Part shown: one piece after another, positions 16,387 through 63,902 of the stretch
How the letters are laid out: the number at the start of each line of letters is the position of its first letter
Numbering within the stretch: the first letter of the stretch is position 1
Assembly (NCBI GenBank): GCA_902624425.1
Contig: CACNXK010000003.1
Location: 41,798-105,797 of the forward strand
From: an uncultured SAR86 cluster bacterium
Lineage (GTDB): Bacteria > Pseudomonadota > Gammaproteobacteria > Magnimaribacterales > D2472
Length of the DNA stretch: 64,000 nucleotides
Direction: 5' to 3'
Notes under the pieces: model-generated
Database searches by the model: none
The model's input: the letters and a program-made list of their open reading frames with translations, nothing else
Told to the model about the DNA's origin: nothing
Program-made: the position numbers and the translations under genes

Positions 16387-18246
16387 ATGAATAAATTTCC
16401 GACATGGCGCTACTTTGTAATTATTGCAGTGCTAATGCTTGGGATACTTTATGCTCTTCCTAATCTTTATCCGGCGCAACCTGCAATCCAGGTAGCTTAT
16501 ACAGATTCGTCTAAATCTGCAGATCAATCGTTACTCAATACAATCCGAGAAGAAATTGCTAAGCAAGATATAAAAATTTCAGAAATTAATCTCAAGAATA
16601 ACAACATTGTTGCTCAGTTTTCTTCTGTAGAAGATCAACTTGTAGCTAAAACAGCCCTTCAGAAGGCTTTACTTGACAAAGTTATTGTTGCATTAAAGCT
16701 TGAGCCTACTACTCCAGAATGGTTAGCATCTATTGGTGGACGACCTCTTAAACTTGGTCTTGACCTGTCAGGCGGTGTTCATTTCTTATTAGAGGTAGAT
16801 GTTGAAACGGCTCTGGGTGATAAAGTTGATGGCCTTTTAAATTCCTATAGAAAGAAATTTAGAGCTGAAAACATAAACTATATTTCTTCATCAATTTCAG
16901 GTGAACAGGTTACATTTAAATTTAAATCTAATGAGGATTATGAAAAAGCGTTAGATATATTCCTCACAGATACCCTTACTCCTACCGGATCTCAATTTGA
17001 TTTAGTTGAGCAGAGTAATATCTCAACTTTAAAGGTAAGTTATTCAGATACAGCTATTAAAGAGCTGCGAGATTATGCAGTTAAGCAAAACTTAATGACA
17101 CTTAGAAATAGAGTTAATGAACTAGGGGTATCAGAGCCAGTTGTTCAGCGACAAGGGGCAAATAGAATTGTTGTTGAATTACCTGGTGTTCAAGATACTG
17201 CAGCAGCAAAAAAGATTATTGGTAAAACAGCTAACTTAGAATTTAGACTTGAAGCAAAATCTAATGCATCACGTCTGAGAAAAACTGAGTTTGAGTATAA
17301 AGACGAGAGATATGGAACAGCATTTTTAGAAAATGATGTAATTGTTACCGGCGATAGAGTCACAAATGCTAATACAGGTTTTGATGAGAGTGGTTTTGCT
17401 CAAGTAAACATTACTCTGGATATGCAGGGTGGAAGAGCCATGCAGCGAGCTACTAATGGCAATGTTGGCAGAAGACTTGGTGTCTTATTTGTTGAGCAGA
17501 AAAGTAAATCTACACTTGTTATAGATGAGTTCGGTAACGAGGTGATTGAACAAACCTCATACATAGAAAAAAATATAATTAATCTTGCAACTGTTCAAGC
17601 TGTTTTAGGAACTAATTTTAGAATCACTGGTGTTGGCTCACCACAAGAGGCAAGTGAACTTGCATTGTTATTAAGAGCTGGTGCTTTGGCCGCGCCAATG
17701 AAATTTGTTGAGGAAAGAACTGTAGGGCCTAGCCTTGGGAAAGAAAATATTGAACTAGGTATGAGATCAGTAATGATAGGGTTTTTAATGGTTATTCTTT
17801 TTATGGGCTTTTATTATCGATTATTTGGATTAGCAGCAAACGTAGCACTTGCATCCAATCTTGTTCTTATAACCGGGATTATGTCTCTGCTTGGTGCAAC
17901 ACTTACATTGCCGGGTATTGCTGGAATAGTTTTAACAGTTGGTATGGCTGTAGATGCAAACGTTCTAATATTTTCAAGAATTAGAGAAGAGCTCAAAGGT
18001 GGTAAAAATCCGCATCAGGCAATTCAAGATGGCTTCTCAAGAGCATTTATAACAATCTTTGATGCCAATGTAACGACTCTGATTGCTGCATTAATTTTAT
18101 ATGCGATTGGTACAGGCCCAATTAAGGGATTTGCTGTAACTCTTTCAATTGGGATCATTACGTCAATGTTTACTGCAATAATGGGAACAAGAGCAATTGT
18201 TCAATTAATTTATGGGTCTAAAAATATTAAGGAGCTTAGAGTTTGA
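16387..18246 (+). CDS. secD: Protein translocase subunit SecD
   Basis: 619 aa. LGLDLSGGVHFLLEVD and the C-terminal 6-TM SecDF core. Confidence 0.95.
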   Translation: MNKFPTWRYFVIIAVLMLGILYALPNLYPAQPAIQVAYTDSSKSADQSLLNTIREEIAKQDIKISEINLKNNNIVAQFSSVEDQLVAKTALQKALLDKVIVALKLEPTTPEWLASIGGRPLKLGLDLSGGVHFLLEVDVETALGDKVDGLLNSYRKKFRAENINYISSSISGEQVTFKFKSNEDYEKALDIFLTDTLTPTGSQFDLVEQSNISTLKVSYSDTAIKELRDYAVKQNLMTLRNRVNELGVSEPVVQRQGANRIVVELPGVQDTAAAKKIIGKTANLEFRLEAKSNASRLRKTEFEYKDERYGTAFLENDVIVTGDRVTNANTGFDESGFAQVNITLDMQGGRAMQRATNGNVGRRLGVLFVEQKSKSTLVIDEFGNEVIEQTSYIEKNIINLATVQAVLGTNFRITGVGSPQEASELALLLRAGALAAPMKFVEERTVGPSLGKENIELGMRSVMIGFLMVILFMGFYYRLFGLAANVALASNLVLITGIMSLLGATLTLPGIAGIVLTVGMAVDANVLIFSRIREELKGGKNPHQAIQDGFSRAFITIFDANVTTLIAALILYAIGTGPIKGFAVTLSIGIITSMFTAIMGTRAIVQLIYGSKNIKELRV

Positions 18247-36869: not shown

Positions 36870-39035
36870 ATGGATATGAAAAATTACGTAAAACGTCAAA
36901 ACTTGAGCATTCATAGTGCACTTGATAGATTCCTATCTGATGAAGTCTTGGTTGGGCTTAATATAGATGCAGAAGAATTCTGGAATAATTTCGAAGAACT
37001 TCTTAATAAATTTCACGAAAGAAATAAAGATTTATTAAAAAAGAGATCTTTTTTGCAAGATCAGATTTCTGATTGGCATAAAAATAATGATCTGAACTTA
37101 GATGAATATAAAAAGTTTTTAATTGAAATCGGTTATTTAGAAAAAACTCCTGATGATTTCACAATTACAACTGAAAACACAGATCAAGAAATATCTAGCA
37201 TTCCAGGTCCGCAGTTAGTCGTCCCAATAATGAATGCAAGATTTGCCTTAAATGCAACAAATGCAAGATGGGGTAGTCTTTATGATGCACTTTATGGAAC
37301 AGATGTTATTTCGGAAGATGAAGGTGCAACAAGAGAAGGACCCTATAATGAAATCAGAGGAAATAAGGTAATAGACTATGCAAAACAATTTTTAGATGAT
37401 TGTTTTCCAATCGAAGACTTCAGCCACAGTGATGTTTCACATATCACTATAGAAAATCAAAGACTGGTATTTTGTTCTGACCAAGAACAAATTTCCTATT
37501 TGAAAGACGAGTCTCAATTCAAAGGTTTCAATGGTATTTTTGAAAGTCCAACTGCAATTCTTTTAGTCAATAATAATCTTCATATAGAAATTCAAATAGA
37601 CTCTGATCATCCAGTTGGCAAGAGCGATAAAGCAAATATTAAAGATATTATTTTAGAATCTGCTGTCTCAACAATCCAAGACTGTGAAGATTCAGTCGCA
37701 GCTGTTGATGCAGAAGATAAAGTAACAGCCTACAGAAACTGGCTAGGTTTGATGAAAGGTGATCTTTCTGAATCATTTGAAAAGAATGGAAAACAAATTA
37801 CCAGAGTCTTAAAGGAAGATAGACAGTACTTAGATTTGGAAGGTAAAAGTTTTTCTCTTCCTGGAAGAAGTCTTTTGTTAGTCAGAAATGTAGGCCATTT
37901 AATGCAGAACTCTTCTGTAATTTTAGAAAATGGTGAGGAGGTATTTGAGGGTATTTTGGATGCTGTTTTTACTATTTGCATAGCACTTTATGATTTAAAA
38001 AATCTAAATAGTCTTTCAAATTCTAGAACTGGGAGCATGTATATTGTGAAGCCTAAAATGCATGGATCTGAGGAAGTAGCTTTTACTTGTGATTTATTTG
38101 ATGCTGTTGAAAAAATTTTTAAATTAAAAAAGAATACAGTTAAAGTTGGCATCATGGATGAGGAGAGAAGAACCACTTTAAACTTAAAATCATGTATTGA
38201 AAAAGCAAAAGAAAGAGTAATCTTCATTAATACAGGATTTTTAGATAGAACTGGTGATGAAATACATACAAGCATGGAAGCAGGAGCTATGGTTCCAAAA
38301 TCAGAGATGAAAATGCAGCCATGGATTAACTCATATGAGGACTGGAATGTAGACATTGGAATACAGTGTGGCTTGAATGGTAAAGCTCAAATCGGAAAAG
38401 GTATGTGGGCAATGCCTGATGAAATGAAGGAAATGGTAGAGACTAAAATTATTCATCCTTTATCTGGCGCAACATGTGCATGGGTTCCTTCACCTACAGC
38501 AGCAACACTTCATGCAATGCATTACCATGAAGTTGATGTTCTTTCTCAACAGGAAAAACTTTCTTCAAGAAAGTCTGCAGATATAGATAAGATCTTATCC
38601 ATACCACTTTTGAAAGATGATTTAGATAAGAAAACTATAAGGGATGAAATTGCAAATAGTGCTCAAGGCATTCTTGGATATGTAGTTAGATGGATTGACC
38701 AAGGTATAGGGTGCTCAAAAGTTCCTGATATTAATAATATAGGCTTAATGGAAGACAGGGCAACTTGTAGGATTTCCAGCCAACATATATCAAATTGGCT
38801 TCATCATGGTATCTGCTCAGAAGAGGAAGTGATTGATATTTTTAAAGAAATGGCCCTGGTAGTTGACGAACAGAATAAAGATGATCCTTTATATAATAAA
38901 ATGGGTTCAAATTTTTCTGGTTTTGCATTTCAGGCATCATTAGATTTAGCAATAAAGGGAGTAAATCAGCCAAGTGGATATACTGAACCTTTATTGCATA
39001 AATGGCGTTTAGAGTTTAAGAAAAATACTTCTTAA
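36870..39035 (+). CDS. glcB: Malate synthase G
   Basis: 721 aa. IPGPQLVVPIMNARFALNATNARWGSLYDALYGTD, MDEERRTT, and size typical of the G isoform. Confidence 0.93.
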   Translation: MDMKNYVKRQNLSIHSALDRFLSDEVLVGLNIDAEEFWNNFEELLNKFHERNKDLLKKRSFLQDQISDWHKNNDLNLDEYKKFLIEIGYLEKTPDDFTITTENTDQEISSIPGPQLVVPIMNARFALNATNARWGSLYDALYGTDVISEDEGATREGPYNEIRGNKVIDYAKQFLDDCFPIEDFSHSDVSHITIENQRLVFCSDQEQISYLKDESQFKGFNGIFESPTAILLVNNNLHIEIQIDSDHPVGKSDKANIKDIILESAVSTIQDCEDSVAAVDAEDKVTAYRNWLGLMKGDLSESFEKNGKQITRVLKEDRQYLDLEGKSFSLPGRSLLLVRNVGHLMQNSSVILENGEEVFEGILDAVFTICIALYDLKNLNSLSNSRTGSMYIVKPKMHGSEEVAFTCDLFDAVEKIFKLKKNTVKVGIMDEERRTTLNLKSCIEKAKERVIFINTGFLDRTGDEIHTSMEAGAMVPKSEMKMQPWINSYEDWNVDIGIQCGLNGKAQIGKGMWAMPDEMKEMVETKIIHPLSGATCAWVPSPTAATLHAMHYHEVDVLSQQEKLSSRKSADIDKILSIPLLKDDLDKKTIRDEIANSAQGILGYVVRWIDQGIGCSKVPDINNIGLMEDRATCRISSQHISNWLHHGICSEEEVIDIFKEMALVVDEQNKDDPLYNKMGSNFSGFAFQASLDLAIKGVNQPSGYTEPLLHKWRLEFKKNTS

Positions 39036-39098: not shown

Positions 39099-39319
39099 TA
39101 CCTAACGAGGACCGATAAGAGACCAACTGCAGACGGAAACTTAAGAGAAATCGAAGGAAGAGCCCTCAAGGCGAAAGCGTTTTAAAGAGTATACGATAAA
39201 AAATAGCTTTAAAACCCACCAAGGATGAAGAGATAACATCTAAGGAGCTAAAGAAAATCTCACTTTAGACACTTGAGGAACTCGAACTAAGAGACAGAGC
39301 GCAAGCTCTGTTTTTTTTT
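39099..39319 (+). ncRNA. Candidate Csr/Rsm-family (CsrA-sequestering) small RNA, about 220 nt
   Basis: Bounded by a consensus-like promoter and a strong terminator (ACAGAGC-GCAA-GCTCTGT plus T9 at 39294-39319). There is no plausible ORF. Six GGA motifs in A(N)GGA context at 39109, 39135, 39156, 39223 (CAAGGATG), 39244 and 39277. The 5' end is predicted only. Confidence 0.6.
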
Positions 39320-39367: not shown

Positions 39368-40777
39368 ATGTTCACTAGAACAAAGATTATTTGCACTATT
39401 GGCCCAGCTACATCTGAATTAAATATAATGCAAAAGATGTATGCAGCTGGAATGAATGTCGTTCGCATTAATATGTCACATGCATCTCATGATGAGGCGT
39501 TAAATGTAATTAATAATGTTAAATTAATTAATAAAAATTTAGATATTAAAATGGGTCCAATTTCTATTTTAATAGATACTCAAGGCCCAGAAATCAGAAC
39601 AGGAGACAGAGATACATCTCTTGATTTAAAACTTGGTGATAAAGTAAATCTTACTGTAAGAGATGAAGTTGATGTTGAAACATCATCTATCAAAATTAAC
39701 TATAGAGGATTAATTAACAGTGTTAAAAAAGGTTCCAAGATTTCTGTAGATAATGGCCTAGTAAATTTTGAAGTTTTAGAAAAACATGATGACAAGCTTT
39801 TATGCAGAGTTATTGATGGAGGTAAAATTGGTAGCAAGAGAAGTGTTAATCTGCCCGGAGTAAGGATTGATCTTCCTTCAATAACCAAAAAAGACAAAGA
39901 AGATATAAATTTTGCTATCAAACATGATGTAGATTACATAGCTCTTTCCTTTGTTCGAAAAATACAAGATATTCATAGTTTAAGAAAGATCCTAAAAAGA
40001 AAGAAATCACCAATAAAAATTGTTTCAAAGATTGAAGATAATGAAGGTCTTTCTAATATTCATGCTATTACTCAAGAATCAGATTCTGTCATGGTTGCCA
40101 GAGGTGATCTTGGAATTGAAACAAGCTTGGCTGATCTGCCAAATGTTCAAAGACGAATAATGTATGCATGTTCAAAATGGGGTAGAAGATCTATCGTAGC
40201 TACTCACTTGTTAGAATCAATGATAGAGAAACCAACACCTACCAGAGCCGAAGTAACTGATGTTGCTAACACTATCTATGAGGGTGCAGATGCAATTATG
40301 CTGTCTGGTGAGACTAGTATTGGGAAGTATCCTGTTGAATGTATTAAGTTTCTCAAATCAATAGCTGGTAGTTCAGAAAAATTTAGAACATTAGGTTATG
40401 AAGAAAAACTTAAATTAAGCAGCGACTGGGAATATTTAGCAAAGACTGCAAGAGATCTCGCTGAGTCAATTGATGCTGATGGTATTATCGTTGTTACAAG
40501 AAGCGGGTATACAGCAAATCTAGTTGCCAATGCAAAGCCATTCAATGTTCCAATATATGCTTTCACCAATGATAAAAGAGTTCATAGTCAGCTTTCATTA
40601 GTTGGCTCTGTTTTAAGTATTTATCAAAAAAGTATTGTTGATAATAAAAATAATATGTCTAAAATTGCTAATACACTCAAAAAGGTTTTTAGTAAAAAGA
40701 AAAAATTGAAGTTTGTTCTTATTTCGGGGATGTTTTCTGAGAAACATTCTGATGCAATTAGGGTTGTAAACTTTTAA
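39368..40777 (+). CDS. pyk: Pyruvate kinase
   Basis: TKIICTIGPA, MNVVRINMSHA, MVARGDLGIE, and a C-terminal regulatory domain. Confidence 0.95.
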   Translation: MFTRTKIICTIGPATSELNIMQKMYAAGMNVVRINMSHASHDEALNVINNVKLINKNLDIKMGPISILIDTQGPEIRTGDRDTSLDLKLGDKVNLTVRDEVDVETSSIKINYRGLINSVKKGSKISVDNGLVNFEVLEKHDDKLLCRVIDGGKIGSKRSVNLPGVRIDLPSITKKDKEDINFAIKHDVDYIALSFVRKIQDIHSLRKILKRKKSPIKIVSKIEDNEGLSNIHAITQESDSVMVARGDLGIETSLADLPNVQRRIMYACSKWGRRSIVATHLLESMIEKPTPTRAEVTDVANTIYEGADAIMLSGETSIGKYPVECIKFLKSIAGSSEKFRTLGYEEKLKLSSDWEYLAKTARDLAESIDADGIIVVTRSGYTANLVANAKPFNVPIYAFTNDKRVHSQLSLVGSVLSIYQKSIVDNKNNMSKIANTLKKVFSKKKKLKFVLISGMFSEKHSDAIRVVNF

Positions 40778-45681: not shown

Positions 45682-45723
45682 TCTGTTTAAAATTCCTTGT
45701 TCTTGTGTATAATTCAGCACGTT

Positions 45724-45918
45724 ATGGCAGATAAAAAACAAACAAAAGTATATTTAATTCCTGAAGGCGAGACTCGTGATTCTCACACTTACCACTACAC
45801 TGTAATTAAAACTAGAAAATTTATTTTAGAAAATACTAAACTAAGACTTAAGAAGTTTAATCCCGTGAAAAGAGTTCACGAATGGTTTGTTGAAGCCAAA
45901 TTGCCGCCCCACAGTTAA
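45724..45918 (+). CDS. rpmG: Divergent ribosomal protein L33-like ORF
   Basis: From the ATG at 45724: MADKKQTKVYLIPEGETRDSHTYHYTVIKTRKFILENTKLRLKKFNPVKRVHEWFVEAKL. It aligns by eye with L33 (...[21 protein letters not shown]...[23 protein letters not shown]). It is stand-alone, with no rpmB partner. Confidence 0.5.
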   Translation: MADKKQTKVYLIPEGETRDSHTYHYTVIKTRKFILENTKLRLKKFNPVKRVHEWFVEAKLPPHS

Positions 45919-47942: not shown

Positions 47943-47961
47943 ATACTTGACTTTCCTGCTA

Positions 47962-48027
47962 ATGTGTCTATTATGTGACATTAATGTTACAAATTGACAT
48001 GCAAATGTCACAATTAGGACACAATAA
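47962..48027 (+). repeat. Six degenerate 11-bp direct repeats in helical phase
   Basis: ATGTGTCTATT / ATGTGACATTA / ATGTTACAAAT / TGACATGCAAA / TGTCACAATTA / GGACACAATAA. The array also includes the inverted repeat TGTGACAT (47974-47981) / ATGTCACA (48005-48012) and the hairpin TGACAT-GCAA-ATGTCA (47995-48010). Confidence 0.7.
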
Positions 48028-48105
48028 AATGAGTAAAATTTTTAAAAAATTAGACGAGTTGATGAAGGAAAGTTCTATAAGTAAAGTTTGTCTTAATTTT
48101 ATAGA

Positions 48106-49062
48106 TTAATAAGATAGCTTAATACTATTTATAATCTCTCCCTCTATATCCAATAGTTCGACTAAAACGGAGTTGTTGTCAATCTCAATAACTCCGTAAT
48201 TCTCTTTATAGTATGTTTCATCAATTAAATATTCGTCAGTTTCATCAAAAGAACTTCCAGGTTTATTCATAGAGGAAGAAGTTATTTCATAAATTCCATC
48301 CATGTTGTAGATTCCACCTCTATGTCTATCACCCGAAACAAGCAAAACATTATTTTTGTGATTATCAATTAGGCTCAACAATCTTTTTTGCTCAAGAGGG
48401 AAATTGCTCCACTTTTCGTAAGGATGATCTTTGGCAATTATTTGGATAGAACTAAATACAATTAAGAAATCAAACTCATCTTTTAGTTCACTCTCTAACC
48501 AATTCCACTGACTAGTTCCAAGAATTGTTGCGTCAGGATTTAGGTTCTCAACATAATTTCCTTTTGGACCCTTTAATTTAGATCTAAAAAATCTTGTATC
48601 TAAAAAAATTAGTTTAAAAACCTTACCATTTATTATTTTTTCTTCTGAAAAATAAATACCATCTCTATTATGTCTATCGTCATCTAAGGATATGTCCCAA
48701 AAATTTAGAAATATTTCTTGAGATTGTCTTTTAAGAGAATATTCAGAGCCAGCATCATTTAGCCCGTAATCATGATCATCCCAAATTGGAAATATCTCTA
48801 CATTATTTAACCATTTTGGAAATAGATCTTTCTGCTTTTTATAAGCGCCAACCATTTTCCTCAAAGATCCGCTTGGAACATCGCCATATACATTATCTCC
48901 AAGGAATACAAAGTAATCCAAGTTCTCTTCACCAATAGCATCCCAGATAGGTTGAGGAAAATCTTGATCAAGGCATGATCCAAGACCAAATTTTACAGTG
49001 TCGGCATGAACAAAAGACAAACTTAAAGCAGATAAAAGATATAATTTGATAAAATTGTTCAT
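48106..49062 (-). CDS. Exported PhoD-like metallophosphatase
   Basis: Signal peptide. YFVFLGDNVYGD, PIWDDHDYGLNDAG and LLVSGDRHRGG metallophosphoesterase/PhoD-like motifs. Confidence 0.75.
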   Translation of the reverse strand: MNNFIKLYLLSALSLSFVHADTVKFGLGSCLDQDFPQPIWDAIGEENLDYFVFLGDNVYGDVPSGSLRKMVGAYKKQKDLFPKWLNNVEIFPIWDDHDYGLNDAGSEYSLKRQSQEIFLNFWDISLDDDRHNRDGIYFSEEKIINGKVFKLIFLDTRFFRSKLKGPKGNYVENLNPDATILGTSQWNWLESELKDEFDFLIVFSSIQIIAKDHPYEKWSNFPLEQKRLLSLIDNHKNNVLLVSGDRHRGGIYNMDGIYEITSSSMNKPGSSFDETDEYLIDETYYKENYGVIEIDNNSVLVELLDIEGEIINSIKLSY

Positions 49063-58196: not shown

Positions 58197-58892
58197 ATGT
58201 CGCATCATATTTTAGTAGTAGAAGACGAACCAGATATAAACAAAACCGTTTCTTATAATTTAGCCAATGAGGGTTTTCACCCCGTAAGTGCGCTCAACCT
58301 TAAAGAAGCTGATGATCAACTTTCATCAAATAATATATCTTTAATAATTCTAGATTTAATGCTTCCTGATGGCTCGGGATTAGATTTTTGTAAAACTCTT
58401 AAGTCATCAAATATTTATAAAAATATTCCTATAATTATTGTTACAGCAAAAGGTGATGAAGTTGATAAAGTAGTTGGTTTTGAGCTTGGCGCAGATGATT
58501 ATGTAACGAAACCTTTCAGCGTAAGAGAGCTTATGTTGAGAATAAAGGCCATATTAAAAAGAAATACACAGGAAAGAAACTCAAACTCTAGCACAGTCTT
58601 TACTTTTGAGGGCTTGACTATTAGTGATGACTCTCATGAGGTTTTTGTTAACAATATTGAGATAAATTTAACTGCTTTGGAATTTAAACTTTTGAAGCAT
58701 TTAGTTGACAGAAGAGGCAGGGTTCAAACTCGTGACCAGCTTTTAGAAGAAGTTTGGGGATATTCTTCTCATGTTACTACCAGAACCGTCGATACTCATG
58801 TCAAAAGATTAAGAGAAAAGCTTAAAGAAATGGGTAAACATATCCAAACAATCAGAGGTGTTGGATATAGGTTCTCTAGGTCATCTGAATAG
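58197..58892 (+). CDS. phoB: OmpR-family response regulator, PhoB-like
   Basis: ILVVEDEPDI, DLMLPDGSGLDFC, IPIIIVTAKGDEVDKVVGFELGADDYVTKPFSVRELMLRIKAILKR and TRTVDTHVKRLREKL all parallel PhoB. Confidence 0.65.
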   Translation: MSHHILVVEDEPDINKTVSYNLANEGFHPVSALNLKEADDQLSSNNISLIILDLMLPDGSGLDFCKTLKSSNIYKNIPIIIVTAKGDEVDKVVGFELGADDYVTKPFSVRELMLRIKAILKRNTQERNSNSSTVFTFEGLTISDDSHEVFVNNIEINLTALEFKLLKHLVDRRGRVQTRDQLLEEVWGYSSHVTTRTVDTHVKRLREKLKEMGKHIQTIRGVGYRFSRSSE

Positions 58893-58898
58893 AGTCTA

Positions 58899-60107
58899 AT
58901 GTTTTCTTTTCTTAGAATCTTCACTGTTTTCTTAATTTCATTTATCTCGTTCTTTTTAATTCAGAGCTACTTTGATGGGGCTTACAGCTCCAATCTTGAA
59001 ATAAGCATCACAATTTTTTTATTTTCATTATTTTCATCATTGCTTGTTTGGAGAATTAACCGAACTAGAATTAAATTGATTGCAAAACAAACAGATTCTT
59101 TTGGAAGTGTTTTAGATAACTTAGGAGAGGGTGTTCTGCTGGCTTCTACATATGGTGATATTACATATGCAAATGAAAGCATGCTAAAGATATTTGAGTT
59201 CAAATCTCTTAAAAATAAAAATATTAATGATTTAAAAATTAATGCATTAAAGAATATGTTTAAAAATGCTTTAAAAGATGGCTTATTCCAATATGAATTT
59301 CAAATCCAAGGCAAAAGTTCAAATCCTAAATGGTTACTTGGATCCATAAATAGATCAAAAACAACAAATGAAATCATTCTTGTGATTAATGATGTTACTG
59401 AATTAAGGGCAAATGCTTCTATGAGAAGAGATTTTATTTCCAATTTATCGCATGAATTAAGAACTCCCGTTAGTGTTATTTCTGCAAATGCTGAAACTTT
59501 GGTGGATGGTGCTATTGATAACAAGAAGGATGCAAAAATTTTTTCAAAAGCCATCCTTCATAATGCTGAAAGGATTTCAGGTTTGGTTAGTGACTTAATA
59601 GACTTATCAAGGATTGATTATGGCGAGATTCACTTAGATCTTAGTGAATTAAATGTTTGTGATGTTGTAAATGTTGTTAAAAATTCACATTACAGTTCTG
59701 CTAAAAGAAAAGGAATAAATATCAATTTTATAGAGAAAAAACTACCCAATGTTCTAGCGGACGAGGCTGCTGTTGAGAGAATCATGACGAATCTTCTAGA
59801 TAATGCTATTAAATACACTAAAGCTAATGACGAAGGTGAGGTTGAGATTGAAGTAAAGAAAGAGAAAAATTTCATTAAAGTTTTAGTTAAAGATCTTGGA
59901 ATAGGGATACAAAGCTCTGATCAAGAGCTTGTTTTTAAGCGATTCTATAGAACGCCAGATGCAAGGGCAAGCCAAAAAACTGGAAGCGGTCTTGGGCTTG
60001 CAATTGTAAAAAACCTCACTATAAGTCTTGGTGGTCAAGTTGGTGTAATGAAAAGAAGTTATAAAGGCAGCACTTTTTGGTTTACACTCCCAATTTACAA
60101 TTCCTAA
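58899..60107 (+). CDS. phoR: Sensor histidine kinase, PhoR-like
   Basis: N-terminal TM segments, a PAS-like region, H-box FISNLSHELRTPVSVI, N-box LLDNAIKYT, and G-boxes DLGIGI / GSGLGLAIV. Confidence 0.6.
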   Translation: MFSFLRIFTVFLISFISFFLIQSYFDGAYSSNLEISITIFLFSLFSSLLVWRINRTRIKLIAKQTDSFGSVLDNLGEGVLLASTYGDITYANESMLKIFEFKSLKNKNINDLKINALKNMFKNALKDGLFQYEFQIQGKSSNPKWLLGSINRSKTTNEIILVINDVTELRANASMRRDFISNLSHELRTPVSVISANAETLVDGAIDNKKDAKIFSKAILHNAERISGLVSDLIDLSRIDYGEIHLDLSELNVCDVVNVVKNSHYSSAKRKGININFIEKKLPNVLADEAAVERIMTNLLDNAIKYTKANDEGEVEIEVKKEKNFIKVLVKDLGIGIQSSDQELVFKRFYRTPDARASQKTGSGLGLAIVKNLTISLGGQVGVMKRSYKGSTFWFTLPIYNS

Positions 60108-60172
60108 CTTAAGCTAGCTGTTTAAAGTATATTCCCTTTAAATAAGCTAAAATACTCAGTTCGTTTTTTAAT

Positions 60173-60556
60173 ATGAATAAAATAAATCTAAAATATGTGT
60201 TCTACTTTTTAGTGATATCACTATCAGCATATCTGCTTGTAAGCACTTTGATCTTGAACAGCTCCAATAAAATAGAGGATTTTTCTGTAATTAGGCCAAT
60301 TAATGTCCAAAACACAACAATACGAAACGATATCTCTAGTACACCTCCTGCAAGCTTTAATTATGAATTATCCGCTGTGAGATTGGGTGATGAGAATACA
60401 TCAGTGATTGTAAAAAAGGGAGGTACGGAATACGTAGTTCAGATTAATGAGTTGTTAGAAAATAAATATAAACTAATACAAGTAGATAAAAGTGTAATAA
60501 TTTTTGAATTTCAAGGTAAAAAATTTACAATAAATAATAGGTTTAGTAATGAATAA
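60173..60556 (+). CDS. gspC: Short GspC-like type II secretion protein (TM plus HR domain only)
   Basis: 127 aa. N-terminal TM segment. YELSAVRLGDENTSVIVKKGGTEYVVQINELLENKYKLIQVDKSVIIFEFQGKKFTI resembles the GspC/PilP HR domain. Sits directly upstream of gspD, overlapping it by 8 nt. Confidence 0.55.
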   Translation: MNKINLKYVFYFLVISLSAYLLVSTLILNSSNKIEDFSVIRPINVQNTTIRNDISSTPPASFNYELSAVRLGDENTSVIVKKGGTEYVVQINELLENKYKLIQVDKSVIIFEFQGKKFTINNRFSNE

Positions 60557-62396
60557 CTTTTTTAAAAAATCTTTATTAGCGACGACATTATGCGCATTTT
60601 TTATTGTGCAAGCTCAGGAAACTTTTATTCTTAATTATGAAGATGTCGATATTAAAAAAGTAACTCAAGATATAGCTAATTTTTCAAAGAAAACTATTAT
60701 TCTCGATCCAAGAGTAAAAGGGAAGGTTACAATCTTTTCTAACTCATCACTATCTTCTGATGAAGTTTGGGATGTTTATTTACGCACAATACAGGTTAAT
60801 GGTTTTAGCGCCCTTAATGATGAGAATTTTGTAAGGATTGTCCCTGAAAACGAAGCAACTAGAGATCAAAACTCTGGAGAATCAGGCGGCGAATTTATTA
60901 CAAGAGTTATTGAGCTTAAAAATAGGTCCTCAGTTGAACTTTTACCACTCATTAAGCCAATCGCCGGAAGGCAAGCGAATGTTTCAAGTATTGCATCAAT
61001 TAACTCTTTACTTATCGTTGATAGAAAAAGCAATGTTGAAAGAATAACGGAGGTAGTTCAGTCATTAGATGAAGACAACACTGCAAGTGTGACTATTGTT
61101 GATTTAAAAAATCTGTCATCAGTTGAAGCAGTTAGAATTCTTGAGAAGTTAAAATCCCAAAACAATCCTACAATCAATAATTTTGTTGCCATTTCTTTCA
61201 GTGCATCAAATTCTGTAATAGTGTCTGCCAACTCAATTACAACAAATATAATCAAAGAAACACTTCAGCAATTAGATGCTGATGCAATTAGTGAAGGTTC
61301 AGTCGCTGTCATATATCTTAAATATGCTAATGCTGAGGAGGTTGCTGGAATAGTTAGTTCTATAGCTTCAAGATTTATTTCTTCAGAATCAGAAAAACCA
61401 ATAGTCACCTACCATGCTCCAACAAATTCGGTTGTTGTATCAAGTGATGAATCAAATATAGCAACTATAAAAAATCTTATATCTAAACTTGATATAAGAA
61501 GGGCTCAAGTATTAGTAGAAGCTATAGTAGTAGAGCTTTCAGAAACAGCTGCAAGAAGCTTGGGTGTAGAAACTATTTTTGCTGGTGCAGAGGATGGAGA
61601 AATACCCATTGGAATTACTAGATTTCAGAATGGAACAGGACCTGACCTTCTAGGCTTAACAGGATCTGCGATTGAGTCTGGTGATAATGCTAATTTTTCA
61701 AATATTGCAGCTAATTCGCTTTTAAACTCTCAGGGCATCATTGCAGGTATTGGAAAAATATCAGAGGATGATGACAGCATGATAGCGATTATCAATGCTA
61801 TAGATGCAGATAAGAATTCTAATATCTTAACTACTACATCATTATTGGCAATGGACAATGAGGAAGCTTCTACTGTTATTGGTCAGGAAATTCCTATTAC
61901 AACAGGTGAAAGTTTAGGTTCAAATAATACAAACCCCTTCAGGACAACCTCAAGAGAAGAGGTTGGTATCAAGCTTTCAGTAAAGCCTCAAATTAATGAG
62001 GGCAATTCAGTTATCTTAGAGATAAAACAGGAAGTATCAGGTGTTGCTGGCCCATTAACTGGGACTACTGATTTAATTACAAATAAAAGAACAATAGAAA
62101 CTACTGTATTGGTAGATAACAATCAAATTATTGTTTTGGGCGGTTTGGTTGATGAAGACATACAGGAAGATATTCAGAGAGTCCCTGTCCTAGGTTCAAT
62201 TCCAGTTCTGGGTAAATTGTTCCAATCATCCAGTGAGTCAAAAGTGAAAAAGAATTTAATGGTCTTTTTAAGACCTAAGATTTTAGTTGACTCGGAATCG
62301 GTTTCTCAGATTTCGACTGAAAAGTATAATTTTATCAAAGCAGAACAATTACTTAAGCAGCAATCTAAGCTAATCGACCTCACAAAAGATAAATAG
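60549..62396 (+). CDS. gspD: Type II secretion system secretin GspD
   Basis: N0 domain FILNYEDVDIKKVTQDIANFSKKTIILDPRVKGKVTIFS and secretin core VPVLGSIPVLGKLF. Confidence 0.93.
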   Translation: MNNFFKKSLLATTLCAFFIVQAQETFILNYEDVDIKKVTQDIANFSKKTIILDPRVKGKVTIFSNSSLSSDEVWDVYLRTIQVNGFSALNDENFVRIVPENEATRDQNSGESGGEFITRVIELKNRSSVELLPLIKPIAGRQANVSSIASINSLLIVDRKSNVERITEVVQSLDEDNTASVTIVDLKNLSSVEAVRILEKLKSQNNPTINNFVAISFSASNSVIVSANSITTNIIKETLQQLDADAISEGSVAVIYLKYANAEEVAGIVSSIASRFISSESEKPIVTYHAPTNSVVVSSDESNIATIKNLISKLDIRRAQVLVEAIVVELSETAARSLGVETIFAGAEDGEIPIGITRFQNGTGPDLLGLTGSAIESGDNANFSNIAANSLLNSQGIIAGIGKISEDDDSMIAIINAIDADKNSNILTTTSLLAMDNEEASTVIGQEIPITTGESLGSNNTNPFRTTSREEVGIKLSVKPQINEGNSVILEIKQEVSGVAGPLTGTTDLITNKRTIETTVLVDNNQIIVLGGLVDEDIQEDIQRVPVLGSIPVLGKLFQSSSESKVKKNLMVFLRPKILVDSESVSQISTEKYNFIKAEQLLKQQSKLIDLTKDK

Positions 62397-63902
62397 ATGT
62401 CTGATATACCTAATGATGTCATGGCTGAAACATCAAGCATTCTTCCTTACGACTTCGTAAAACAGAATAATATCTTTGGAATAGATAAAAATGGCGAGAT
62501 TAAAATTTATTCAACTTCAGAGCTAAGCTTTGATATACATCAGGAGCTATTTAGGTATATAGGGAAATCATTTGAAGTAGAAATTTGTGATGCTGAGGAA
62601 TTAAATAACCTCATAACATCAAATTTTTCTGTGATTTCACAAAACTCTGAACTTTCAGAAGAACTTAAAGATAATTTTGATCTCAAAACTTTTGCAGGAA
62701 CAATTACAGCTACAGAAGATCTATTAAGTGGGAGCAATGATGCCCCAATCATAAAACTTATAAATGGTATTTTAAGTCAGGCAATTAAGTTAAGAGCATC
62801 TGATATTCACTTTGAGCCATATGAAGATTCTTTATCGGTTAGATATAGGATAGATGGAATATTGCAGGAAGTTTTATCTCAAGATCCTCGACTCACACCA
62901 TTAATTATTGCCAGACTAAAGGTAATTTCAAAACTTGATATTTCTGAAAGGAGGTTGCCACAGGATGGAAGAGTTTCGTTATCACTAGGAGATAAAAATG
63001 TTGATGTTCGTGTTTCAACTTTACCATCTACATATGGAGAAAGAATTGTATTAAGACTCTTAGATAAACAATCAGCACAAATCAATATTAATGATCTTGG
63101 TTTACCGCAAACAATACTTTCAACCTATAAGAAGTCTTTAAGTGAATCAGAAGGTATTATTCTAGTTACTGGACCAACAGGCTCAGGAAAAACTACAACG
63201 CTTTATGCTGGTCTTAGAGATCTTAGTGACTCGTCTCAAAATATTCTTACTGTTGAGGATCCAATTGAATATACCCTGAAAGGCATTGGACAAACACAGG
63301 TTAATCAAAAGACAGGGTACTCTTTTGCTACAGGATTACGCGCAATGCTCAGGCAAGATCCAGATGTTGTGATGGTGGGAGAAATAAGAGATACAGAAAC
63401 TGCCCAAATTGCTATTCAGGCTAGCTTAACGGGCCATCTAGTTTTATCAACAGTACATACAAATAGCGCTGTCGGAGCTATCACTAGGCTGAGAGATATG
63501 GGAATAGAATCATTTTTAATATCTTCAAGTTTGAAAACAGTAATTTCTCAAAGACTTGTAAGAAGGTTATGTGATAGATGCAAAGTTAAAAACACTATTA
63601 ATAAAGACATTGCTGATTTGTTTGGTCTTAAGCAGAATCTTGAAGTTTATGATCACAAGGGCTGTGATAAATGTAATGGTACTGGATACAAAGGAAGAAT
63701 TGCTGTTGCAGAGTGTGTAAATGTTGATAAAACCATTAAAGACATGATTCACAACGAAAAGTCAGAGAATGAGATTAATGAGTATGTATTTAAAAATGCT
63801 CCATCTATAAATTCTTCATGCTCAGATCTTCTTATAAAAGGTATAACGTCTTGTGATGAGCTCATCAGATCTAACAATATAAAAGAAGATGCCTTCGTAT
63901 AG
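62397..63902 (+). CDS. gspE: Type II secretion system ATPase GspE
   Basis: Walker A GPTGSGKTTTLYA, Asp box, Walker B DPDVVMVGEIRD, and tetracysteine CDRC...CDKC. Confidence 0.95.
   Translation: MSDIPNDVMAETSSILPYDFVKQNNIFGIDKNGEIKIYSTSELSFDIHQELFRYIGKSFEVEICDAEELNNLITSNFSVISQNSELSEELKDNFDLKTFAGTITATEDLLSGSNDAPIIKLINGILSQAIKLRASDIHFEPYEDSLSVRYRIDGILQEVLSQDPRLTPLIIARLKVISKLDISERRLPQDGRVSLSLGDKNVDVRVSTLPSTYGERIVLRLLDKQSAQININDLGLPQTILSTYKKSLSESEGIILVTGPTGSGKTTTLYAGLRDLSDSSQNILTVEDPIEYTLKGIGQTQVNQKTGYSFATGLRAMLRQDPDVVMVGEIRDTETAQIAIQASLTGHLVLSTVHTNSAVGAITRLRDMGIESFLISSSLKTVISQRLVRRLCDRCKVKNTINKDIADLFGLKQNLEVYDHKGCDKCNGTGYKGRIAVAECVNVDKTIKDMIHNEKSENEINEYVFKNAPSINSSCSDLLIKGITSCDELIRSNNIKEDAFV

Follow-up and report, generated by a model that had tools for sequence, protein, structure and literature searches.

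We describe a 163-bp region (positions 47943-48105) that lies between two convergent genes in a 64,000-nt stretch of the SAR86 contig CACNXK010000003.1. This whole stretch, with a G+C content of ~33%, is called the window here, and all coordinates are window positions. The region combines a sigma-70-like promoter, an array of palindromic heptamers spaced at about one helical turn, and an open reading frame (ORF) of 26 codons. Judging from its sequence and from that of its relatives, it is, somewhat more probably than otherwise, a complete small transcription unit, made up of an operator-covered promoter and a 26-codon gene. In the mechanism that we propose, the near-consensus sigma-70 promoter, which begins 4 nt past the stop codon of the upstream gene, would drive the 26-codon ORF, and a DNA-binding protein would bind the phased sites in a cooperative manner, lined up on one helical face. 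When bound, this protein would block RNA polymerase and hold the promoter in a repressed state; its release would lead to strong expression.

An earlier reading of the window, made from its letters alone (the sequence-only reading), had described six direct repeats of 11 nt at this place and had taken them for a binding array. When the sequence was re-read, all the strings and coordinates in that description were correct, including the six 11-mers from 47962, the inverted repeat TGTGACAT (47974-47981) / ATGTCACA (48005-48012), the hairpin TGACAT-GCAA-ATGTCA at 47995-48010, and the motifs AGGA (48016-48019) and TAAAAT (48025-48030). The repeated element is a palindromic 7-bp core, TGTnACA, with exact copies at 47974, 47985 and 48006, and the ends of the array are mirror-image half-matches to it (TGTGTCT at 47963 and GGACACA at 48017). 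Exact TGTnACA occurs 21 times in the 64 kb, and three of these copies fall inside 39 bp at the array. Five of the six proposed repeats carry a heptamer of this type, while the fourth (TGACATG, 47995) is not a match. A weight matrix trained only on the arrays of other lineages, and applied to 63,990 window positions, ranked units 2, 5, 1, 3 and 6 at 1, 18, 62, 163 and 1086, respectively, and unit 4 at 16,712. The proposed 11-nt register also held only in part: the cores follow one another at steps of 11, 11, 10, 11 and 11, so that there is a 1-nt slip between units 1-3 and units 4-6. Tandem Repeats Finder reported just 2.9 copies of an 11-nt unit, with a score of 34, and the pair TGTGACATTA/TAATGTTACA was returned by the repeat finder as a palindrome.

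For similar arrays we scanned the window together with SAR86 loci from genomes and metagenomes (L001-L030, ~240 kb in total). No second array was present in the window, and none was present in the other loci outside the orthologous slot. A repetitive extragenic element or miniature inverted-repeat transposable element was rejected on the grounds that dispersed copies were not found in this material. Within the window no further sites of the motif were found, including upstream of a phoB-like gene that is considered below.

To compare relatives we gathered loci from genomes and metagenomes with the flanking proteins as anchors, a procedure that carries no bias toward the array or the ORF, and obtained extra contigs from database proteins. 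The public loci that matched best were from single-cell genomes and MAGs of the SAR86 cluster. The short arrangement seen in the window was shared by 17 loci, representing 14 haplotypes that align without gaps. Among these haplotypes, 5 of the 36 specified positions in the heptamer cores are variable, as opposed to 16 of 23 positions in the spacers between units (Fisher p=2e-5). In unit 2, variation is confined to the centre base (G, A or T). The arms TGACAT and ATGTCA, of which unit 4 forms part, are invariant around a 4-nt centre that reads GCAA, GTAA, GTGA, GAGA, GTTA or TTTA. The same architecture recurs in locus L027, where the flanking proteins are only 53-58% identical to those of the window. 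By these counts the array exceeds chance, and its cores are selectively conserved across relatives. The repeats thus do not look like a decaying tandem duplication, since the cores are kept, the spacers are free and the architecture recurs in divergent lineages. The earlier proposal of a multi-repeat binding array is upheld in the form of a helically phased multi-site array, to which a protein would presumably bind.

The array starts inside a promoter. A consensus scan found TTGACT and TATTAT separated by 16 nt, matching the sigma-70 consensus at 10 of 12 positions. In the 14 haplotypes this 16-nt length is fixed, and the first ten bases of the spacer vary freely. The -35 hexamer reads TTGACA or TTGACT in the other array types L005, L018 and L038. 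Array types that are otherwise unalignable retain TTGAC(A/T), followed after 16-17 nt by a TA...T hexamer, and the L005-type loci have TAAAAT at an equal distance from the -35. Transcription would be expected to start near 47981. Relative to this predicted start, the units lie at approximately -18, -7, +5, (+15), +26 and +37 and the ATG at +49, so that the array runs from the promoter spacer and -10 hexamer across the predicted start and into the ribosome-binding region, to about +43. Judged by this layout, the geometry is that of an operator, as for a repressor, and not that of a Pho box replacing the -35 element. Two statements of the sequence-only reading have to be revised here. Its proposed -10 element, TAAAAT at 48025-48030, overlaps the ATG and therefore cannot serve the 26-codon ORF. 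Its remark that the array is not in a classical promoter position does not hold either, the region being, by the same layout, the promoter/operator of its own downstream gene.

The 26-codon ORF is very probably a real small protein gene, as its substitution pattern indicates. Compared with L004, the window copy shows 7 synonymous and 2 conservative non-synonymous changes over 11.7 and 66.3 sites, respectively (binomial p=4.6e-5), and across the 14 haplotypes variable sites are distributed 11/4/16 over the three codon positions. The ratio of non-synonymous to synonymous polymorphism (pN/pS) is ~0.05-0.3 among the short-type loci and 0.4-0.8 when the comparison is with the L018 copy, which has diverged further. 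Six variants of the peptide occur (the window encodes MSKIFKKLDELMKESSISK), with no frame breaks in the 17 short-type loci; the length of 26 codons is constant in all 17 and in L018 and L026. The sequence-only reading had the array lead into this ORF, as we confirm, and had left its conservation to be checked in relatives, where the coding signature was found. Database entries begin the ORF at an upstream ATG (41 aa). A longer form of 41 or 44 codons was rejected: it has an in-frame stop in L002, and all changes upstream of 48029 are non-synonymous, so the start is placed at the ATG at 48029. The peptide matches no Pfam or NCBIfam family.

Small proteins of this kind are known elsewhere. Stand-alone regulated genes encode bacterial proteins of <50 aa, for example stress-induced ones in Escherichia coli (PMC11429745). 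The 26-codon ORF resembles such genes in being stand-alone, conserved, apparently regulated, and missed or wrongly started by gene callers. It differs in its product, a hydrophilic, amphipathic peptide that has one conserved Cys and is no membrane peptide. It also differs from them in being found in one SAR86 sublineage only, with no detectable family.

Our next concern was what the array precedes in other strains. The slot between the two flanking genes has differing content in close relatives, and always opens with the same promoter and array. Four other locus types (L005-type, L018, L027 and L038) carry an 11-bp array between a promoter and a Shine-Dalgarno sequence. In L005, L006, L007, L019 and L024, TTGACA is followed by 16 nt, TAAAAT, five units, AGGAG and then a gene for a 137-aa signal-peptide protein. 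The array of L027 is the cleanest, reading ATGTTACATTT ATGTAACATTA ATGTTACATTT ATGAAACAGG, with units that are perfect ATGTnACAT 9-mers 2 nt apart, and its cargo is 58% identical to that of L005. L018 and L026 have six units, which in L018 keep a strict 11-bp spacing, ahead of a 105-aa signal-peptide protein, unrelated to the 137-aa cargo, after which comes a homologue of the 26-codon ORF. The ATG of this homologue overlaps the stop of the preceding gene (ATGA), which suggests translational coupling. The more distant contig L038 has TTGACT and a five-unit array before the gene of a 148-aa protein that is homologous to the 137-aa one (51% identity), with a hairpin and a T-run downstream of this cargo gene; neither the hydrolase gene nor the PhoD-like gene adjoins the array and cargo there. 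No Pfam or NCBIfam match was obtained for the 137-aa cargo, the 105-aa cargo or the neighbouring unknown ORFs. Judged by its position in all these loci, the array belongs to whichever gene it precedes.

The boundaries of the exchange can be approached through the flanking genes. In L005-L007 and L019, which carry alternative cargo, the upstream hydrolase-like gene is 95% identical to that of the window and the PhoD-like allele only 75%. This places a recombination breakpoint at or near the array, with the cargo and the PhoD-like allele exchanged as a block. In L026, at ~740-860, the 105-aa cargo gene is interrupted by a stretch encoding LLYYAYMRIKLYFSIVCLFI, the N-terminus of the upstream hydrolase-like gene, while the 26-codon ORF downstream remains intact. 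Either a local rearrangement or a chimeric assembly would account for this. The features of the window locus are collected in Table 1.

Table 1. Coordinates of the promoter, array units, small ORF and flanking genes in the window.
Feature	Position	Strand	Basis and remarks
Upstream gene up301, 301 aa	47037..47942	+	Signal-peptide-like N-terminus; GHSGG; stop 4 nt before the -35
-35 hexamer TTGACT	47947..47952	+	Consensus scan; invariant in 14 haplotypes
Unit 1 TGTGTCT	47963..47969	no strand	Half-match, mirrors unit 6; in promoter spacer, abutting the -10; 1 variable position
-10 hexamer TATTAT	47969..47974	+	Consensus scan; 1/6 positions variable (TAATAT in L004/L022)
Unit 2 TGTGACA	47974..47980	no strand	Exact TGTnACA; between the -10 and the predicted start
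Unit 3 TGTTACA	47985..47991	no strand	Exact TGTnACA; with the next base = TGTTACAA
Unit 4 TGACATG	47995..48001	no strand	Degenerate; left arm of TGACAT-N4-ATGTCA; site of the 10-bp step
Unit 5 TGTCACA	48006..48012	no strand	Exact TGTnACA; invariant in 14 haplotypes
Unit 6 GGACACA	48017..48023	no strand	Half-match; overlaps weak Shine-Dalgarno-like AGGA 48016-48019
26-codon ORF MSKIFKKLDELMKESSISKVCLNFID	48029..48109	+	Its stop shares 4 nt with that of the convergent PhoD-like gene
PhoD-like metallophosphoesterase, 318 aa	48106..49062	-	Pfam PhoD 63.5 bits; signal peptide; context, outside the unit

Which protein might bind the array? Winged-helix response regulators of the OmpR/PhoB family are the best class of candidates, for two reasons: the unit is identical to TGTWACAW, the motif obtained for OmpR by chromatin immunoprecipitation sequencing, and the period is 11 bp. 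In Salmonella this motif often occurs in 2-3 copies per region, and the sequence TGTTACAA in tviA is required for OmpR binding in electrophoretic mobility shift assays (PMC3586657). The heptamer of the window is the same, unit 3 with its next base reading TGTTACAA, an exact match to TGTWACAW (PMC3586657). Units 2 and 5 differ from the motif at the centre base only, and the copies stand in tandem at about one helical turn, as is typical of OmpR-type sites. Three of the four L027 units match as well (TGTTACAT, TGTAACAT and TGTTACAT), and the fourth, TGAAACAG, does not. Tandem occupancy on this scale has a precedent in OmpR at ompF F1-F3, where six molecules are bound. The likeness has limits. 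At classical OmpR sites the protein binds upstream of the -35 and acts as an activator, whereas the window units cover the -10, the predicted start site and the leader, and the centre base in this lineage is not limited to A or T, as G and C also occur. A further parallel is found in ArcA repeats, which Park and colleagues reportedly described in 2013 as TGTTA elements, 2-5 in number, spaced at 11 bp centre to centre and mostly overlapping promoters. The array shares with them the 11-bp period, a variable number of repeats, overlap of the core promoter with repressive logic, and TGTTA in several units, but its units extend to the full palindrome TGTnACA and many of their centres are G or C.

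Several observations weigh against the proposed operator-controlled unit. The promoter call consists of a consensus match and its conservation. The offset of the array from the -35 differs by ~5-6 bp between the window and L038; a shift of this size is tolerable for occlusion of the promoter, yet by this comparison the geometry is not rigid. Moreover, L038 offers an alternative promoter, GTAACA-18-CATAAT, which would put most units upstream of the -10, as for an activator. The sole OmpR-family regulator in the window is PhoB-like, and a second target of the motif was not found there. The ORF has no Shine-Dalgarno sequence conserved across the 14 haplotypes: AGGA stands 9 nt upstream of the ATG in the window, and this place reads ATGA in L020 and GGGA in L002. 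As the 26-codon peptide is below the length limit of homology searches, the 41-aa extended form was used as query, and it returned 7 clusters, all from the same locus, with no homologue outside it. Finally, to judge from their symmetry, palindromic heptamers would be just as suitable for a dimeric protein of the ribbon-helix-helix or Cox/Xis type.

This last point leads to an alternative in which the operator would be the target of a small repressor that oligomerises and does not belong to the response regulators, either of ribbon-helix-helix type (ParR/CopG/Arc-like) or a Cox/Apl/Xis-like winged-helix protein, one dimer sitting on each 7-9-bp palindrome (A)TGTnACA(T) and successive dimers stacking at one-turn intervals. 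We consider it unlikely. Every unit is palindromic, with perfect ATGTnACAT 9-mers in L027, the array overlaps the promoter, and phage contigs carry three exact TGTNACA at 11-bp spacing in at least 120 loci. R1 ParR acts on 11-bp iterons in parC, and the direct repeats bound by P2 Cox and by 186 Apl are spaced at one helical turn. In the systems of P2 Cox, 186 Apl, lambda Xis and R1 ParR-parC, small proteins form polymers on short repeats with this spacing, in many cases over a promoter that is repressed by them, and in this layout they resemble the present one. They belong to phages and plasmids, and their binder is usually encoded beside the sites, whereas the window locus is chromosomal and has no such gene nearby, its neighbours being secreted proteins or lipoproteins and enzymes. 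The 26-aa peptide was judged too short to be a ribbon-helix-helix protein, and the OmpR motif is equally palindromic, so that palindromy does not discriminate between the two classes. Among the matches listed, the phage arrays adjoin integrase genes, terminase small-subunit genes and early promoters. Such contexts are heterogeneous, and the geometry is therefore shared by several unrelated protein classes and cannot name the binder; part of the abundance of phage arrays may reflect 11-bp tandem repeats in general. One group of marine phage contigs (among the IMG/VR contigs L040-L159, e.g. L051 3091-3130, L067, L108 and L158; G+C 0.31-0.36) has TGTTACAATTC three times plus TGTAACAATTT, in units nearly identical to those of SAR86. 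These repeats precede TTTACA-N17-TATAAT promoters by ~15-20 nt, in many cases directly following a tRNA or terminator.

The sequence-only reading had favoured a Pho box, with PhoB as an activator that turns on the small protein, or an antisense RNA, under phosphate limitation, in connection with the PhoD-like phosphatase. We now regard this as distinctly improbable. The array does share with the Pho box (CTGTCAT-N4-CTGTCAT) an 11-bp period, 4-bp A/T-rich spacers and TGTCA-like cores, and unit 5 contains TGTCAC. The pattern TGTCA-N6-TGTCA (with at most one mismatch) occurs three times in the array, out of 4 occurrences in the whole window, where 4.9 are expected. A PhoB/PhoR-like pair is encoded 10 kb away, and SAR86 pst and pho genes are transcribed under phosphorus depletion (PMC12981677), which also counts for this model. 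Its position counts against this model. A Pho box replaces the -35 and lies ~10 bp before the -10, but here a conserved -35 (TTGACT in the window) and -10 precede the array, whose units extend from the -10 to about +43 and leave the -35 region uncovered, and the -10 needed by the earlier model is the one that overlaps the ATG. The fourth base of the heptamer is G, T, C or A where a Pho box has a fixed C, the units are palindromic, and the heptamer is nearer to TGTWACAW than to CTGTCAT.

The proposed links to phosphate genes are not supported either. In L038 the array precedes a homologous cargo without a PhoD-like neighbour; adjacency to the PhoD-like gene therefore appears incidental, and the functional tie drawn from it is unsupported. 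The PhoB-like regulator at 58197-58892, cited as a second link, is 10 kb distant, and a matching motif was found neither in front of its gene nor elsewhere in the window. It scores 248 bits against TIGR02154 (cut-off 296) and 170 bits against the OmpR model, and is accompanied by a PhoR-like kinase. Its recognition helix, RTVDTHVKRLR, fits the PhoB-type pattern RTVDxH..RLR when read against that pattern. As a binder, PhoB is neither supported nor ruled against by these data, and PhoB acting as a repressor may be conceivable. Within 58197-63902, the genes that come after the PhoB/PhoR-like pair are those of type II secretion (GspD secretin, GspE ATPase) and not pst, and the phoB-like gene lies 38 nt after the gene of a preceding AMP-binding enzyme. 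No pst genes were found in the 64-kb window. Nor was a local regulator gene found near the array, its neighbours encoding enzymes, lipoproteins and secreted proteins. Zur, Fur, LexA, NrdR, CRP, TyrR, HexR, ArgR and dif were compared with the array by eye; their half-site spacing did not appear to fit, and they were set aside.

An RNA element is a very unlikely explanation of the region. Here the imperfect 23-nt inverted repeat would act as a hairpin, terminating or stabilising the flanking 3' ends or structuring the leader of the ORF. Its two halves (47960-47982 / 48004-48026) are 74% complementary, the whole region folds better than shuffled sequences (z=-3.3 on the plus strand, z=-4.1 on the minus strand), and between the TGACAT and ATGTCA arms, which do not vary, lies a free 4-nt loop, four of whose six variants fit GNRA. 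Palindromic units, though, produce such dyad symmetry automatically. In L020, L031 and L032 the long dyad is disrupted with no compensating change, and it is absent from L005, L027 and the L018-type arrays, which keep their 11-bp units; in L018 and L026 the TGACAT and ATGTCA arms no longer pair properly, yet the phasing is perfect. Neither strand has a U-tract, and a terminator scan of 47943-48105 was empty. As an intrinsic terminator the region fails in the same way, with A/U-rich stems followed by AAUAAAAU (plus) or UUAGCAGG (minus). Rfam gave no family at gathering score, the best sub-threshold hit being a snoRNA model with E=0.81. Because conserved unit 1 lies upstream of the -10, the breaks in the dyad are uncompensated, the leader that begins at the predicted start is no more stably folded than shuffles (z=-0.5), and neither a U-tract nor an Rfam family is present, a function at the RNA level is less likely than one at the DNA level.

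Hardly probable at all is a recombination or attachment site (integrase arm-type or Xer/dif-like) that swaps cargo genes, for although the slot holds different cargo in closely related strains, L026 has a fragment of the 5' end of the upstream gene inside it, and similar arrays flank integrase genes in phage contigs among the matches listed, the neighbourhood has no integrase or recombinase gene, the array always stands between promoter and Shine-Dalgarno on one side only and facing the cargo, it moves with the cargo gene to a different context in L038, and a dif-like 11-6-11 structure is absent from its sequence.

Some further features of the window were recorded. The upstream gene up301 looks like an alpha/beta-hydrolase from its sequence and has no Pfam or NCBIfam match. 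A terminator-like hairpin on the plus strand at 48167-48197, with 12 pairs followed by AATTCTCTTT, lies antisense in the 3' part of the PhoD-like coding sequence, 58 nt past the stop of the small ORF. In L002 and L020 it loses pairs with no compensating change, its T-rich tail encodes a conserved KENYG on the other strand, and it is probably fortuitous. After the glucokinase gene there is a stand-alone small ORF (45697-45918, plus strand) with a weak match to ribosomal protein L33 (Pfam PF00471, 21 bits, under the cut-off of 25) and no cysteines. At 39106-39294 on the plus strand, between the genes for malate synthase G (36870-39035) and pyruvate kinase (39368-40777), lies a full-length IMES-1 RNA (Rfam RF02034; 194 bits, gathering score 81), a match that places an environmental RNA family in a SAR86 genome. 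Three DnaA-box-like 9-mers, TTATCCATA (1588-1596), TTATCCACA (1600-1608) and the inverted TGTGGATAA (1614-1622), sit just upstream of an ORF at 1637-2314. This cluster may belong to an origin or to a promoter under DnaA control; within the window, no switch was seen in cumulative GC skew.

Returning to the operator-covered transcription unit, a bolder extension of it would see a strong promoter and a 4-6-unit TGTnACA operator that covers it as a conserved, regulator-gated 'expression socket' into which small secreted or peptide genes are exchanged. There is no room for a terminator, and on this interpretation the transcript would therefore run antisense into the convergent PhoD-like gene. In the window the socket would thus yield the 26-aa protein together with a transcript antisense to that gene, both coupled to a signal, possibly phosphate by way of a PhoB-type repressor. 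We rate this extension as a long shot. If true, it would couple one signal to a new small protein and to antisense control of a phosphoesterase.

SAR86 is among the most abundant uncultured bacterial groups of the surface ocean and has very few regulators; to our knowledge, almost nothing is known of its cis-regulatory code or of its small proteins. The TGTnACA heptamer at 11-bp phasing provides a delimited and comparatively validated motif that is usable for regulon searches in complete SAR86 genomes, and the locus adds a conserved gene of 26 codons, one that is overlooked by standard gene callers or given the wrong start. No new principle is involved, phased operator arrays and small regulated ORFs being well known. 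The locus is an example of a promoter and operator that are kept while the expressed gene is swapped, and its interest comes mainly from this retention of the operator, despite the exchange of cargo, in an abundant, uncultured and regulator-poor marine lineage.

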